64,000 nt of DNA, taken from assembly GCA_951406725.2 (NCBI GenBank), contig OX597823.1, forward strand, positions 84,568,001 through 84,632,000, given 5' to 3'. Below, one piece after another: positions 728 to 53,235 of this stretch. The stretch is from Octopus vulgaris (lineage: Eukaryota). Numbering within the stretch: the stretch's first letter is position 1; the number at the start of each line of letters is the position of its first letter. The position numbers and the translations under genes were made by a program. The notes below the pieces were generated by a model. That model had not been told where the DNA came from and searched no databases. It worked only from the letters and a program-made list of their open reading frames with translations.

Positions 728-3222
728 GTTTAAGAAGAGAGAACAGGACGTTTAAGAAGAGAGAGTAAGGACGTTTAAGAAGAGAGAACGATAAAACAGC
801 GCTCCGAAATCTATCCACAAATATGGAAAACAAAGACAACACATGGAGCCAAAAATTTACTGACAAAGGATTGGACTATATCCGAGTAAGTAATACTCAT
901 TGAAATTTATTACTATTTTCGAAACGAAATGATATATTTTAACTCGATATCATCTCCTCCTCTAACACAACACATGTAAACATGCGTGGTACATTACGAT
1001 CCATCAACACCAGATCATCTCCGACCCCAAACACCATGTACAAAAAAACTACGAAGAAATTAAATAACACCGATATTATTCAACCCTAGAATAACAATCG
1101 GGAAGTACGTACTTTAAACTTACAACATAAAATGTACGAAAAACAACACGTGCAAAACAAAGTGACAACAGAAATGAACGGCCCGGTACCCTACGAAAAT
1201 GACGACCGTCAAAATAATGGGCCAGACGTTGTTCATGTCCCGCAAATAAAACCCAAAAGACATAAATGGACACGTGAGGAATACATTTCTATCCTACACG
1301 CTCACTTTACAGCAGTGCTCTACCCAAAGAATGAAAACACAACAACACATACATATAAAATATGGAAGGAAAATAATATAAATATAGACTTGGATACAGC
1401 AATGAACCCTAATAAACTAGCTAACGTACGAAGATACATTCTCAACGCAAAAAAAATATCAGAAATAGAAATAGAACATCTAAAAGAAAAAATACATCAG
1501 GAAAATGTAGATAGAAGCCGCACAACAATGCCCAATAATATAAACACTGAAATAGTAAAACACGAAGACAAACGCAACATTCCCAACAAACGCGATGTAA
1601 ACAAAAAACAACAAACCCAGACCGTAAGGATGCATAATAATACACGACAAACAGCAAGCCAAAACATGACAAACAAACATACAAATAAGAAAGAAAGTGA
1701 CACAAATCTAAAATCTGGAAACAACGAAGGGGAGCCTAATGATTATGATAATATAAAAAGTAGAATAATTAAAGAGCTGAAAACCACAGAGCTCAAAATG
1801 AACCACCGACCATACCTCCCAAAAATCAAAATAGACGAAACAACAACACCAATTATAAACAGCATAAACCTAGCCGTCACGGAACTAATAGCCACTGAAA
1901 CAAAAAGCGATATCACTGAGCTAAATGACTTAGTATACGCAGCAGCCACTGCAGACACAAAAGAAGCTGGATACTCACTCAAACCCGTCCAAACAGGAGT
2001 ACCACCAGCCAAACAAACCCTGTGGATAAATAACATCCAAAACAAAATACAAAAAAATGAGAAAAGATCTGTCGATTCTTAATGAAATCAGTAGACAATC
2101 AACGCTACTGAGCAACAAAAAGAAAACAAAAATACTACGCAAATACAACATCACAGAAAAAGATGTACCTGAGATAAAAGAAAAGCTAAAGCAAGATATC
2201 CTTGCTAAAGCAAGATATCCTTGCTAAAGCAAGATATCCAACAAAAAGAAAACAAAAATACTACGCAAATACAACATCACAGAAAAAGATGTACCTGAGA
2301 TAAAAGAAAAGCTAAAGCAAGATATCCTTGCTAAAGCAAGATATCCTTGCTAAAGCAAGATATCCTTGCCAAAGCACAAAGGATCCGCCGGTATGAGAAA
2401 CGCCAGCGCTTCTATGAACAAAACAAAAAGTTCAACTCCAACCCCCAAAAGGTCTACCAAGAACTTGGCAAAAATAAAATAGAAATCACTGCAGTACCAA
2501 CGGCAGAAGTGGAAGAATTCTGGAGAGAAATACGGTCGGCGAACAAACAACCAAAAAAATGGAGTATTAAAACAACAAACGCAGCATCTGAGCAACTTTG
2601 GACCCCAAATGGCTCACGAAGGGGAAAACCATCTTAATTCCCAAATCGAATGAGACAGCAAAACCAAAAAATACAGACCAATAACCTGTCTCCCTGTAAT
2701 GTACAAGGCATTTACAGCAGTGATATCGCAAAGGTTGAACAAACACCTGGACGAAAACAACCTGTTTACAGAAGATCAGAAAGGATGCCGCAAAGGCTCA
2801 TATGGCTCTAAAGATCAACTAATGATTAATAAAGCCATAACTGAAGACAGCCACAGAAAGAAGAAAGGCCTCAGTATGGCCTGGATCGACTACAAAAAGG
2901 CGTTTGATAGCATCCCCCACACATGGATCTTCGAAACACTAGCCATTAACAAAGTAGCACCAACAATTATAAAATTCATAGGACACTCTATGAATAAATG
3001 GCAAACAGTCCTACACCTCCAAACAAAAGAGGGACTCACAAAAACCAAAGACATCCCCATTAGAAGAGGAATATTCCAGGGAGACACGCTCTCTCCACTC
3101 CTTTTCTGCTTGGCATTATCACCTCTATATGATATGCTAAATAGTACAGGATGCGGATATAAATGTTACGGCAAAACGATCAGCCACCTTTTATATATGG
3201 ATGACCTAAAACTATACGCTGT
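726..3222 (+). mobile_element. 5' part of an R4/Dong-clade non-LTR retrotransposon, disrupted and truncated just after the RT active site
   Basis: Starts directly after (TAA)n. N-terminal motif KWTREEY..NKLANVRRYIL (ORF 1132-2082); AKAQRIRRYEKR..QNKKF..FW (2347-2637); RT motifs WLTKGKTILIPK, YRPITCLP.MYK, QKGC, AWIDYKKAFDS, RGIFQGDTLSPLLF, HLLYMDDLKLYA (2600-3222). Contains frameshifts, an internal duplication and a deletion near 2600. Confidence 0.92.
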
Positions 3223-3794
3223 GTAGGGTGGAAGATTGCAAAGTGGTGTTTGTGGTGGTTGTTGTGATGGTGGTTGTTGGGGTGCTGCTGGTGGTTGTGG
3301 TGTTGGTGATGGTTGTGGTGTAGGTGGAGGTTCTGGTGCTGGGGTGGTTGTAGTGTTTATAGTGATGGTTGTGATGACGGTATGATGATAGTAGTCATTA
3401 TGGTGGTGCTGGCAGTGGTAGTGATGATGGTGATGGTGATGATGGTGGTAGAAGTGATGGTGTTGGTGACGATGTTGGTGGTAATCGTGTTAGTGGTGGG
3501 GATAGCGATGGTGATGGAAGAGGTAATGGTCATCATACTATAAGAGAATGAGTACGACGTTGTAATGATGCTGTCAATCAGCTGGCTTTAATTTCTGATA
3601 TAGGAACAAACCCATATATTTTATGGGGAGGGGTAGTCTATTAACTCTACCCGAGTATTTGACTGGTATTCAAATTGACTCCGGAAGGATAAAAATCTGA
3701 CCATGGCAGATTTCGAAATTAGAAGGTAGAAGGAACGGAAAACAAAGACTGAGGAAAGATATTTCTGCTTTCGTTTCACTCCTCTCTACTATCT

Positions 3795-11206: not shown

Positions 11207-11716
11207 AGGCTTTCCTATTTGGAAGCCTCTTAATGTGTTTTAATGTACACGATATTTTTATGTGAATAATATGTATATATATATTTTGTGCTAGGCCACT
11301 GGTAATAATAATTTCTATAATTTTTATTACCCTAATATTATTTATTATGTTTAAATACGTTTTGATAAATTTTTTCGAATTTTTTCCAGCATCCTCTCAG
11401 TCGCCGGACATAAACTGCATCTGCGCAGTGCATTTGAAAAGTTAGAATATACAGGCAGCAAGTTTACATGCGGAGCTAGTTGTGTGTATATTTAAAATCT
11501 AAAGGCTACCTACTGATGAAGACTAGCCTCAGTAAATATTTTTTTTACTGAAATTAGTGAGAAACCATGGTCTAGGAACTAAATTAGATGGTAAACGTTT
11601 TTATTTTCATTCCTTTCGAGAATTTATCCCTAATTAGTGGTTTGAGTTTTCTACTGCTCTTTCTAGCACAAGGCTTTCCTATTTAGAAGCTTCTTAATGT
11701 GTTTTAATGTACACGA
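11207..11716 (+). mobile_element. Non-coding hammerhead-containing element (Penelope pLTR/retrozyme-like) with a 46-bp terminal direct repeat
   Basis: AGGCTTTCCTATTT(G/A)GAAGC(C/T)TCTTAATGTGTTTTAATGTACACGA at 11207-11252 and 11671-11716, enclosing a hammerhead. Confidence 0.7.
11509..11576 (+). ncRNA. Type I hammerhead ribozyme
   Basis: Stem I CCTA/TAGG; core CTGATGA (11513-11519); long stem II (ACTAG/TTAGT and TCAGTAAA/TTTACTGA); GAAA (11561-11564); palindromic stem III CCATGG; cleavage triplet GTC ending at 11572. Confidence 0.8.
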
Positions 11717-12263
11717 AATTTTGTAGAATTCTTTTGCCACCAGCGTTCCTGGCCGTTCCTTTATTGTTGATGTTGAACTTAAAAATGGTCTATGACTATT
11801 TTAATTTTTCCTACTAGGCCGCTGGTGGCAAAAGAATTCTACAAAATTTTTTTTGCCACCCTATATTGATTAATTATGAATTTTCTGGTTAATTCCGTAA
11901 TGGAATCGACGGCTTATATTTATTTGCTGCCGATAAATTTGGCGCGAGTGCGACGATTTGAAAATTTTAGGTCAGATATAAACTTGGCAACGTCGGAAAT
12001 GCCTCGTGAAAATATCTGTTCCGTCTTGGGCTATTTCTTACTGAAGAATCTGAGGGCCTGTGGAAGATTGGCTTGATTTAATTTAATCAGGTTAGTTTAC
12101 CATTAATCAGCAGATGAAACGGTATATCGTATAAGAAATTACAGGGTAAATGTTTTTAAAATTTTCTCCTGGTTTACTGAATTAACTTTTATTTGCGGTT
12201 GAAGCTTTGGCTGTTATTTCTAGTGGGTGAATGGCCTATTATGGCCGTTCCTTTATTGTTGAT
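11716..12263 (+). mobile_element. Second hammerhead-containing non-coding element, with an inverted 5' segment and terminal direct repeat
   Basis: 11716-11745 is the reverse complement of 11820-11849. TGGCCGTTCCTTTATTGTTGAT occurs at 11750 and 12242. Confidence 0.7.
12033..12139 (+). ncRNA. Type I hammerhead ribozyme
   Basis: 8-bp stem I ATTTCTTA/TAAGAAAT; core CTGAAGA (12041-12047); stem II closed by ATCTG/CAGAT with a G-U-rich inner helix; GAAA (12116-12119); stem III CGGTATATCG; triplet GTA ending at 12131. Confidence 0.88.
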
Positions 12264-12751
12264 ATATATATATATATATATATATATGGTGTTCATTTCC
12301 ATTTTATGTTTTCTTTAAAATATATATATATACAATTCTTTAAATTATATATATATATATATAATAATATACAAAATGGGACAAGAACGCAAAACATCCG
12401 GACAACTAGGTGATACAAAAAGGGACAACAAAACATCCAGATAGACGATACAAAAAAGCAAAAGAAAACACGGACGGGTCATTCGAAGCCTTTTATCTTC
12501 AGTCAAGAACCGAATCATCCTCGCAATTTCGGCTGATTAATCTTGTGATTGCTCCAATCTGGCCAGCCCCAAGGAAAAACTAAGCTAAGAGCAGTTAGAT
12601 TCCTTGGAAAAAAGTATCGAATGTATACGAAACAAGGACGGAAAAACAGACGATGTTACACGAATATATATACAAAAGTACAATAACAATATTAACAACA
12701 GAACATAACAACAGGCGTCTTTCGACTGGGGACGAACTGAATTCGGCTGGC

Positions 12752-14200: not shown

Positions 14201-14566
14201 ATATTGAATTGGCAATAAACTTTAGATCTCTGTTTAGTTACTATTTTCATATCTTGCTACTTTTCTTGTTGCAAGATCAGTGACTGATTGTCACTTAGTT
14301 ATTCAATATATTACGAGCTGGAGTGAATTTCTGCTATCTCTTGCAGACGAGTATCCACCACTGAGGATGAGCACAAATAGCTTGAAACCGTACGGTCCTG
14401 TCGCTTGAAGATGGTACGGGTTCGTTCCCCTGCCGGCAAAGTATATGGGAGCAGATTGAATCGAATAAACAGCTGGATGAGGTGTCCTCCTGGGGTTAAA
14501 ATGATAGTAACGTCAGTTTCTACGAAACAGCCATGCTGAAGTGACGACAAACATTACTTCTCAGTA

Positions 14567-36298: not shown

Positions 36299-36353
36299 GT
36301 ACTACTAAGAGTTTCATATGTTGAGAAATGCCTCAAATATATTCATCAGGCAC
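36299..36353 (-). ncRNA. Type I hammerhead ribozyme inside a ~145-bp imperfect palindrome (about 36265-36410)
   Basis: Minus strand: GTGC CTGATGA ATAT-ATTTGAG-GCATTT-CTCAA-C-ATAT GAAA CT-CTT-AG TA GTAC. Stem I is GTGC/GTAC with one G-U pair. Confidence 0.75.
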
Positions 36354-44597: not shown

Positions 44598-45817
44598 TAG
44601 GGTGGGGCAGAGATAGAGAGAGGACATTTTTTGTAAAATTCAAAAGATCATTAATTTTAGCTGCAAACAAATTTTACTGATATCAAATTGCTTGTATTGA
44701 ATTAGCATTTCCCAAAATTAAGTGTGGAAAACAATATCAATCATATGGTGTCCGTTTTCATTAATGCATTTCTGAAGGCTTTCTTGGAAGTTGACTTCCA
44801 CTGTCCCTAGTATTGCTCTTCCGATTTGGGCGAGTTCCACGTGAATAGCTTTCTTCAAATCGTTCAATGTGCAGGGCTTATATGCATACACACGTGCCTT
44901 GCGCTTACCCCACAAGAAATAATTACACATATGGCCAAATCAGGGGACCGAGGATGGGGACAAAGAATATCAGCAAATCTGAAAATGAGGCGGTCACCGA
45001 AGAGAGGGAGAAGAACGTCCTACGTTTCTCTACTTGTATGGACCGTCGCTCCAGCCTGCTGAAACAACACATGTCGAATAGGCATACGTTTTCGTCGGAA
45101 TTCAGGCAGAAAAAAGTTATCATCTCGATCTAACTCTCGGACTTCATAGTAATAGCATTTCCATTATTGCTTTCAAAAAAGTAAGGACCAATGACGGCAG
45201 CTTTCTCCAACAGCACACCAGACCGTCACTTTTGGATGTGCAGTGGTTTTTCATGCAGTTCTCTCGGATTTTCAAGAGCCCAATAAACACAGTTCTGTTG
45301 ATTCACCATGCCAATGAGATGAAAATAAACTTCATCATTCATTAACAAAATGAGGTTGTCATTTGCCTCAAAAATTGCTTCCATCTGACGTGCGAAGTTA
45401 GCCGCTGTGCATAGTACCATGGTTTCAACTGTTGCCCAATGACCGATTTGTACGTATGGAAATGCAAGATTATCCGGGGTCAGTATCGTTCGTGATGCCC
45501 CCACCAGTCTCCTATTCATTAGTGTACCTCGTATATGAAGTGCATTCACCCGACGTAAAATTGTGTTATGGGTGGCAATAAGCCTGATTTCGGTAATATA
45601 GAAATGGTGCCGAAACTCACACTGAACTGCTGTAACAGACTGTCTTAGGCAAACACGCGATACTCTACCGTCCACAGTGCCATGGCTTCACCTAAAAGAA
45701 AAGGAAAGGCTAAGACACCACGGACCAACTGGTACCTGGCCGACATATGTTACTCGCCCTGGGGCTCAGTAACGGCCATTTCAAAAACGTCCGTCCTCTC
45801 TGTTCTGCATTGTCGTA
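44598..45817 (-). mobile_element. Decayed Tc1/mariner-superfamily transposon, DD41D (rosa-type)-like, with degenerate TIRs
   Basis: Minus-strand motifs SVTAVQCEFRHHF, NDEVYFHLIGMVNQQNCVYWALENP..EKPLH, IGPYFFE, FQQAGATVHT, PRSPDL, YFLWG..KARVY..P.TL.DLK.AI, CINENGHH. About 41 residues between the positions of the second and third catalytic acids. TA dinucleotides at both ends. Confidence 0.85.
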
Positions 45818-51996: not shown

Positions 51997-52289
51997 CACA
52001 TATACACAGAGAGAGTGAGAGAGAGAGAGAGAAAGAGAGAAAGAGAGAGAGAGTGAGTGTGCGTGTGTGTGAGTGTGTGTATGTTTGTCACCCATGACCG
52101 TTTGACAACTGCTATTGGTGTGTCTACGTCCCGGTAAATAGCGGTTCGGCCAAAGAGACCGATGGAATAGGTATCGGGGTTTAAAAAATGTGTACTGGAG
52201 TCGATTCGTTCGACTGAAGTTCGTCAAGGAAGTGCCCTAGCATGGCCGCACTCAAATTATTGAAACCAGTAAAAGATAATAGATTAAAT

Positions 52290-52602
52290 TTTTTCTAGAG
52301 GACAAAGTATCATCATTGCACTTTTCTCCTCCTTTGTACGCCCACACCTCGAATACTGCTGCCCCTTGTGGTCTCCCCATACTTCTCAAGGATTGAATCA
52401 CCCCAGAGGGTACTCACTTAACGAATTGAAGGATGCCTTCAATCTTGATTACTGGGATCGCCTTAAAGCCTTGAAACTCTACTCTCTCCAGCGCTGCCGC
52501 GAGCTGTACATCATTTGTACGATGTGGAAAATATACCGCCAGCATAGCCCAAACAACCTGAACATTAGTTTCAAGGTTCATCCAAAGCTGGGACCACGGG
52601 CG
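52290..52602 (+). mobile_element. CR1-type LINE RT C-terminal fragment
   Basis: ALFSSFVRPHLEYCCPLWSPH..LDYWDRLKALKLYSLQRCRELYIICTMWKI, i.e. the RPHLEY..WSP and Y..RL..L.L.SL..RR motifs. Confidence 0.88.
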
Positions 52603-53235
52603 AGAGAGAAAGAAACAGAGAGAGAGAGAGAGGGAGGAGACAGAAGGAGGCAAAGTTAGAGAGATATGAAGAGAGAAAAAGAGAAAGGAGAGAAGAGAGA
52701 GATATGGAAGATTAAGAGAGACAGACAAACGGAGAGATAGATAAAGAGAGAGTGAGAGAAGACAGAAATAGAGCGAGAGAAATACATAGAGAAGGAGAAA
52801 GAGACAAAGAGAGTGAGAGAGAGAGAGAGAACGAGAGAAAGAGAAAGAGAGAGAGAGTAATTGAGAGAGAGAGAGACCAACAGACAAAGAGATAGAGAGA
52901 AAGAGAGAGAGAATGACATAGAGAAAGAGAGATATAGACAAACAGACAGAGAGAAAGAATAAGGGAGACAGAAAGTGAGGGAAAGAGTTAGAGTATGTGT
53001 AAGACATAGAGAGAAGGGGCTGACAAACACTCAGATAGAAAGCCAGGAGAGAGAGAGAAAACATAGATAAGGGAAGAGATATAAACACACGGACAGATAG
53101 ATAGATAGATAGAGGGAGAGAGAGAGAGAGAGGAAGAGAGAGGGGGAGAGAGAGAGCGTGGCAGAGAGAGAATGACAAAGTAAAAGTGAGAGAGGGTGAG
53201 TGAGAGAGTGACTGAGGGAAAGAGAGAGGGGAAGA
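52600..53235. repeat. Degenerate (GA)n polypurine tract
   Basis: Seen directly; similar tracts at about 39530-40350. Confidence 0.9.

Follow-up and report, generated by a model that had tools for sequence, protein, structure and literature searches.

A young hammerhead-bearing repeat family in the Octopus vulgaris genome, a likely non-LTR retrozyme with Penelope-like insertion ends

The stretch of Octopus vulgaris DNA analysed here, 64 kb long and referred to as the window, carries between positions 11716 and 12263 a hammerhead motif accompanied by an inverted 30-mer and a short direct repeat. The locus raises the question of what kind of element such a motif belongs to, whether its structure is maintained as RNA, and how an element bearing no protein of its own could be copied into new sites.

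The copy in the window and its relatives

Judged by its sequence, the locus is one copy of a young, protein-free repeat family, here called family B. Genomic matches delimit a full 492-bp unit at 11750..12241 on the + strand, corresponding to a putative retrozyme monomer in circularly permuted form, with a G+C content of about 35% (174/492 bases), one missing T and one T>A relative to the majority unit, and no overlapping ORF of at least 120 aa in the window. The unit is followed by the first 22 nt of the next one (12242..12263, +), which stop at unit position 22, termed end site 1, at the outer end of the arm, and then, on the right, by the (TA)n target tract (12264..12287), recognised from the sequence itself and from the TA tracts at other insertions. 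To the left, four bases that continue neither arm (11746..11749) mark a head-to-head junction, beyond which an inverted remnant of a second arm (11716..11745, - strand) covers unit positions 71-100. The tail, which spans unit positions 23-128 between site 1 and end site 2, lies at 11772..11877 (+), as placed by the tailed-arm ends at 123-132 in other insertions, and folding predicts a 13-bp hairpin in it immediately before site 2.

Both repeats listed in the initial annotation were recovered: 11716-11745 is the exact reverse complement of 11820-11849 (30/30), and the 22-mer at 11750 occurs again at 12242, at a spacing of 492. Both are by-products, or scars, of insertion. The 22-mer is the overlap of an arm that measures one unit plus 22 nt (514 nt, crossing the predicted cut site), and the second arm has been cut back to 30 nt, lacking the TA tract and the 28 nt up to site 2 that are present in intact insertions. 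Since the window holds a single family-B ribozyme, this copy alone would release no unit-length RNA; the two consecutive units taken as the mark of an active locus by Li et al. (Li, Clavereau and Pollet 2026, bioRxiv 10.64898/2026.07.22.740005) are absent here but present at many other family-B loci.

Directly upstream lies an older relative, family A, represented by a 464-bp unit plus 46 nt (11207..11716, +), as identified from genomic copies and from homology to B (alignment score 179 vs 60 +/- 14 for shuffles). Its identity to the listed genomic copies was 79-95%, and 84-94% for the near-full-length ones. The end sites of the family, at about 46 and 151, are likewise separated by about 105 nt, and five clean two-armed copies, read by eye among 19 loci, show the same end behaviour as B. 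Most likely, B inserted into the TA tract at the site-1 end of A, whereby the tract and 28 nt of tail would have been lost. A hammerhead motif of A was located at 11509-11576 (+), with a predicted cut after 11572. It has a G at the base of stem II where most relatives have a C, and is therefore probably impaired. Its cut site lies on the same strand as that of B, 559 nt upstream, and a read-through transcript cut at both would therefore yield a chimeric A/B RNA.

The genome searched comprises 2.8 Gb in 227 contigs and is rich in microsatellites. A DNA search with the window unit gave 344 matches from the 39 regions scored out of 2942 candidates, the full-length ones being 98-100% identical, and the family was found dispersed over many chromosomes. 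An exact 29-mer of the ribozyme occurred 805 times genome-wide, and its reversed control not once, indicating at least 805 units. A pattern for a diverged sister subfamily, mostly 87-93% identical to the window unit, occurred 655 times (reversed control 0), although at least one of the 100 occurrences listed appears unrelated. In total, 122 insertions were inspected: the window copy, 37 best-hit, 31 first-listed (from two contigs), 7 allele-selected and 46 diverged-subfamily loci, a sample that is non-random in being drawn from best and first-listed matches. Across these 122 loci, units were 492/493 bp long, with a median of 2.3 and a maximum of 9.4 units per insertion. Two of the loci, L071 and L072 (C11, 12.75 and 12.81 Mb), lie 63 kb apart and share identical flanks and an identical junction, with different unit numbers. 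They are a segmental duplicate or an assembly haplotype, and show that unit number changes after insertion; L071 was accordingly excluded as a near-duplicate from later counts, except in the search for chimeras. At L194, one of its two insertions was typed in the end-site count.

The unit was also found in contigs of 14 sequencing runs guessed to be RNA, and contigs from seven of these and from one run of unknown kind were compared with it. Such contigs show no ends, strand or circles; a back-by-one-unit joint seen in run contigs also exists in genomic arrays. At window positions 12141, 12148 and 12149, contigs of one such run (X5, likewise guessed to be RNA) had A>G differences that were absent from 385-391 genomic units, possibly owing to A-to-I editing or to alleles of another individual. 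The idea that such editing had been written into the genome was rejected, as singleton changes were led by G>A (48) and C>T (22), with 11 A>G.

The hammerhead and its predicted dimer

A type I scan of both strands of the 64 kb returned three matches, and the one at 12033-12139 (+) was the best paired, as the initial annotation had claimed. The motif, with a predicted cut after 12131, is delimited by the scan, by its fold and by haplotype conservation. Stem I (12033-12040/12132-12139) has 8 bp, and the core segments are CTGAAGA (12041-12047), GAAA (12116-12119) and GTA (12129-12131). By fold and alignment, the 68-nt stem II (12048..12115) consists of three helices, the inner of which (12065-12078/12085-12098) has 5 G-U and no A-C among its 14 pairs, in line with its earlier description as G-U-rich. 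Folding of both strands over 12030-12142 gave -31.9 kcal/mol for the + strand (z -4.0, matched by 0/200 shuffles) and -19.3 kcal/mol for the - strand (z -2.1, 6/200). Rfam at gathering thresholds returned no matches in the window.

Conservation of the ribozyme was assessed on 333 units from 118 loci, which yielded, besides the commonest haplotype, 33 haplotypes present in at least two units and hence termed inherited. The window ribozyme is the commonest haplotype (127/231 units). Not one of the 12 invariant core bases was changed in any of the 33 inherited haplotypes, while the unconstrained N7 varied freely (C in 13, A in 11, G in 5, T in 4); the 61 singleton haplotypes contained five core changes. 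In the alignment of the 33, 99.3% of 1219 pair cells were paired, a cell count that is inflated by relatedness. Four pairs had changed on both sides: stem I accounts for two of them, and outer stem II and the stem III loop for one each. This number was reached by 5/500 shuffles and in none of the six slid controls, where the count was 0. Given the relatedness of the haplotypes, these double-sided changes correspond to about four events. In inner stem II, 8 of 18 pairs varied by exchange between wobble and Watson-Crick pairing only, 3 departed only by unpaired cells, and there were no double changes. The invariant core, the free N7, the pairing and the double changes support selection at the RNA level on the + strand, as had been proposed from the wobble pairs of the single copy.

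The near-palindromic stem III (12119..12130, +) is weak on its own, its hairpin having a computed energy of -0.2 kcal/mol (pair probability at most 0.08), and the active fold of the monomer is 3.4 kcal/mol less favourable than the minimum. When two molecules pair, in contrast, stem III reaches -13.6 kcal/mol, and -17.5 kcal/mol in the TGCA variant. This variant, in which the TATA of the stem III loop is replaced by TGCA, is found in 19 of the 33 haplotypes and amounts to a swap of A-U for G-C that is pairable only between two ribozymes; it probably reflects one evolutionary event. Since the swap keeps a pair that forms only between two ribozymes, cleavage as a dimer, an earlier suggestion, is supported by the modelled folds, the cutting itself being predicted.

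The accompanying label of a minimal Penelope-type hammerhead had to be dropped. Such hammerheads, as described in the accessible text of Cervera and de la Pena 2014 (PMC4209133), have little or no helix III, a bulge after A9 and a G10.1-C11.1 pair. Family B resembles them in its type I topology, its weak palindromic helix III and its predicted dimer. It differs in an 8-bp helix I, a very long helix II of 68 nt, four possible pairs in helix III, and an A-U in place of G10.1-C11.1 at the base of helix II (in 32 of the 33 haplotypes).

One candidate origin of the long stem II was not supported, namely that it represents a dead copy of the whole family-A ribozyme nested within B. Another B window scored as high (23.4 vs 21.9), and the multiple alignment set core on core, with a 26-nt insertion in B, despite pairwise scores above those of shuffles. 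A search for the double-core pattern gave two matches. The 5' side of the B stem II (window 12048-12115) was seen to resemble the stretch just upstream of, and including, the A core. The 26-nt extension may stem from a short tandem duplication, the local alignment score being no higher than that of the best control window.

Insertion ends, tail and candidate helper families

Two inverted arms joined head to head were found at 89 of the 122 loci, and TA tracts lay on both sides in 108 of 121 insertions and on one side in the remaining 13/121. In 77 of the 89 two-armed insertions, one end fell at unit position 22 (site 1) and the other at about 123-132 (site 2), and the 30-mer of the window is therefore read as a clipped second arm. 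No two-armed insertion ended twice at one site (0/89), while 12/89, the window copy included, have at least one untyped end. Against a 50:50 choice of ends, this rule of one end of each type has a p value of 7e-24. Four further insertions that are apparently one-armed bear a tiny second arm of the other end type. Family B thus shares with Penelope-like elements (PLEs) an inverted 5'-truncated copy, a tail at one end only and a microsatellite target, and by analogy its two-site end pattern is interpreted as the signature of a Penelope tail, which here measures about 105 nt vs the 30-40 nt published for PLEs. Copying of one arm from the other by fold-back was rejected as a general rule, because the longer arm can have either end type. 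One arm, at L155:2123-2691, consists of shortened units of about 240 nt (positions 282-492 + 1-30), which retain the ribozyme and site 1 and lack most of the tail and site 2; they are possibly the product of a mini-circle.

A protein-free element would require a helper, and two autonomous families of PLEs were identified, 150 of 6136 GIY-YIG candidates having been scored. The first, P2, is very young and is represented by a 4273-bp unit at L280:1395-5667 (C8, 53.36 Mb) with a 775-aa RT + GIY-YIG frame. Of its scored matches, 150/150 were 100% identical over 182 aa. P2 sits in (TA)n, has a tail of about 30-48 nt, and shows one end of each type in 7/8 two-armed insertions, the eighth having site 1 twice. 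It carries a hammerhead variant with the core CCGAAGA about 140 nt before its end site 1, a distance of 132 nt in B and 144 nt in A. P1 (L122:1244-6460; C6, 133.34 Mb) is a second young family with the same kind of target. Its 781-aa RT + GIY-YIG frame is preceded by a frame of 479 aa that has no clear assignment in Pfam; the hammerhead variant is of the U3-A8 type (TTGATAA), and the tail measures 40 nt. Alignments of A and B with the terminal repeats of P1 and P2 scored like shuffles (fraction as high 0.17-0.84), and no pieces of P1 or P2 joined to an A or B arm were found in 142 loci. Because P1 and P2 share no detectable sequence with A or B, have tails of about 30-48 nt and form no such chimeras, they are regarded as candidate helpers only. 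A 57-nt B end near a GIY-YIG fragment at L246 was considered as a chimera and discarded, as it is a separate small insertion in a TA tract.

Template of copying and relation to known elements

The reading considered probable on all the evidence is that B is a non-LTR retrozyme which would cut itself as a predicted dimer, close into circles and be copied by the RT and endonuclease of an autonomous element. Tandem arrays would be transcribed on the hammerhead strand, whereupon adjacent ribozymes would pair through their palindromic stem III and, as predicted, cut after 12131, a step built on the observed motif, the selection on it and the dimer-type covariation. Unit-length and sometimes two-unit RNAs would be ligated into circles, as the variant patterns and published retrozymes suggest. 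A PLE protein, likely borrowed from an autonomous element to judge by analogy, would then cleave the two strands of a (TA)n tract, and each DNA end would act as a primer on one shared RNA source, at unit positions 22 and ~128, as modelled on published PLE behaviour in vitro; the observations behind this step are the end rule and the sharing of variants between arms. Each RT would finally run a variable length around the template, after which a head-to-head junction would unite the inner ends.

The nature of the template was addressed through arm lengths, junctions and variants. From site 1, a cut linear monomer allows at most 132 nt of cDNA, compared with 514 nt in the window arm and up to 9.4 units in other insertions, and 366/370 units crossed the cut site without an indel. 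Units differed on average by 0.97 within an arm and 1.11 between arms, with a median of 9 between loci. Among sites covered by at least three units, 120 variants were private to one sampled insertion, comprising 96 singletons, 15 fixed and 9 partial variants, and 11 of the 15 fixed ones spanned both arms (8 loci). Strict ABAB alternation was seen in 4/30 arrays of at least four long units, once with two linked markers, a pattern expected of a two-unit circle. Partial variants also included adjacent blocks and arm-specific pairs (e.g. L073, L140, L240), which one monomeric circle does not explain. Taken together, rolling-circle copying of one RNA is the account to which the greater part of our confidence goes. 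The bolder version, that a dimeric Penelope-like enzyme would roll up to 9 times around one circular RNA (monomer or two-unit) from two fixed sites 105 nt apart, so that the two arms of every insertion represent a consensus of that single molecule and the genome is a direct record of rolling-circle reverse transcription, is put forward tentatively, being slightly easier to doubt than to accept.

The same element and helper could instead have worked from a long linear transcript of several units, left uncut or cut in part, that a few homogeneous source arrays supplied; any circles would then be by-products. Such a multimer, read from a homogeneous array, would leave identical fixed variants, and it accounts for the precise junctions, for sharing between the arms if the source is homogeneous, and for block-like partial variants. 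One allele, with 20 occurrences genome-wide, was clustered at five insertions, as a source lineage would give, and the available text of PMC11167929 has unprocessed RNA as the main in vitro substrate of the Anolis PLE. To spread through every unit of both arms, however, a new variant would have to pass a bottleneck of a single unit, and 15 fixed variants stand against 9 partial ones. Another allele was found in 5 of 8 covering units of one insertion, on both arms and nowhere else in the genome; the genome-wide search for the mosaic allele thus found no source array in the assembly, although the assembled haplotype may lack it. The distribution of both alleles also counts in favour of a single template. 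A true excess of inner arm ends immediately behind the cut site would favour linear cleaved templates, and a first set fits this (16/70 in a 30-nt window, p 4e-6, post hoc), but the excess was not replicated in two others (4/55; 8/75, p 0.09), and the end caller misplaces a few arm ends at position 1. On balance, a linear multimer is unlikely, though it deserves to be kept in mind.

Much less probable still is that the RT copied linear self-cut monomers and, on reaching the 5' end of one, jumped to the 3' end of another. Mosaic variants are possible in this way, through the sampling of several monomers of one source, and one unit of the 370, at L084:2052-2552, has a 6-nt duplication centred exactly on the predicted cut/ligation site. 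Template jumps are usually imprecise, as known from work on R2, which counts against such a route given the near absence of indels at the junctions, and no reproducible clustering of inner ends at the cut site was seen. An equally slight chance is given to growth of the arrays at the DNA level, through satellite-like unequal exchange, gene conversion or fold-back repair, with the hammerhead as a passenger. Duplication of unit blocks after insertion could produce the ABAB and block patterns, inner ends are nearly symmetric in some arms, and local tandem amplification is discussed in the accessible part of Li et al. (bioRxiv 10.64898/2026.07.22.740005). This alternative is nonetheless disfavoured, as it accounts neither for dispersal over many chromosomes at 98-100% identity and fixed ends in TA tracts, nor for either arm being the longer, nor for a core that stays invariant beside a free N7, with changes that preserve wobble pairing on a single strand.

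The preferred reading, copying of a retrozyme circle by a PLE, places B in a class of element that is already known: it works like animal non-LTR retrozymes and, by what can be tested, belongs among them, so that family B is, on sequence grounds, likely a non-LTR retrozyme. Like the elements described in the text available for PMC7229834 and bioRxiv 10.64898/2026.07.22.740005, it consists of dispersed, non-coding head-to-tail units of a few hundred bp with less than 50% G+C, each with one type I hammerhead, its core intact in all inherited haplotypes, and a palindromic stem III, and it coexists with autonomous PLEs, here the P1 and P2 frames. Its unit of 492 nt exceeds the 170-400 nt given for typical animal retrozymes (PMC7229834) and falls within the range of 51-972 reported by Li et al. 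(bioRxiv 10.64898/2026.07.22.740005). Unlike the animal retrozymes so described, B has a 68-nt stem II, two inverted arms in (TA)n and two fixed ends; the main text of PMC7229834 never uses the words 'inverted', 'microsatellite', 'octopus' and 'cephalopod'. That paper reports circles as shown for retrozymes of coral, mussel and axolotl, and their mobilisation by PLEs as proposed, and for dimers, one of nine predicted in Xenopus was cleaved according to the available text of Li, Clavereau and Pollet 2026 (bioRxiv 10.64898/2026.07.22.740005).

The insertions themselves resemble those of endonuclease-bearing PLEs, as far as the accessible text of Craig et al. 2021 (PMC8557442) and Frangieh et al. 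2024 (PMC11167929) describes them. The signature given there comprises partial tandems, an adjacent inverted copy that is truncated at its 5' side, a tail of 30-40 bp on one end and microsatellite targets (PMC8557442), with two internal RT start sites that bound and define the tail (PMC11167929). In vitro, the Anolis PLE cut and extended both strands of AT-rich DNA, and its hammerhead was dispensable for insertion (PMC11167929). Unlike these PLE insertions, A and B have no ORF and no homology to the two autonomous families compared, and show a tail of about 105 nt vs 30-40, a nearly strict rule of ends and as many as 9 whole units. MRC1 and similar PLEs of Chlamys are likewise non-autonomous and occur as multicopy head-to-tail insertions; they differ in resembling their autonomous partner at the 3' end and in belonging to a clade described without canonical hammerheads, according to the available text of PMC8557442. 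Titles and abstracts of the literature, mainly of open papers, contained nothing on retrozymes of cephalopods, on retrozyme insertions with two arms or on variants within arrays as evidence for circles, and the words 'ribozyme' and 'retrozyme' do not occur in the accessible text of a recent octopus repeat annotation (PMC13282606).

What B adds is the tail of about 105 nt in two families, the dimer-type covariation, and variant patterns that make the circular-RNA route directly testable. The spread of retrozymes as PLE-copied circular RNAs is a published hypothesis, presented without direct evidence in the available text of PMC7229834 and bioRxiv 10.64898/2026.07.22.740005. As B is young and abundant and lies beside an intact PLE family with at least 150 copies identical over 182 aa, it lends itself to tests of this hypothesis both in vitro, where the start sites can be named (unit positions 22 and about 128), and in silico, across hundreds of insertions. 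Any model of how a PLE dimer employs its two start sites has to accommodate the rule of one end of each type, and the length of the tail, 105 nt, suggests that RNA fold and not linear spacing sets these sites. An RT able to turn a circle into tandem cDNA at a DNA break of choice would also serve as a tool.

Hammerhead-like motifs extend well beyond families A and B. A short-stem core pattern gave 62,642 matches genome-wide, against 10,539 for the reversed control, so that there appear to be tens of thousands of such motifs in many families, many of them with a palindromic stem III. In the window, further hammerhead-like cores of other families lie at 14361 (+), 16519 (+) and 36303-36349 (-), stem I being weak or absent in the first two. 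Other elements of the window, as taken from translations read by eye, are presumably a broken non-LTR retrotransposon at 1090-3226 (+), whose frame 2654-3226 shows RT motifs, a fragment likely derived from a Tc1/mariner transposase at 45226-45687 (-), and what is assumed to be a LINE 3' fragment at 52288-52659 (+).
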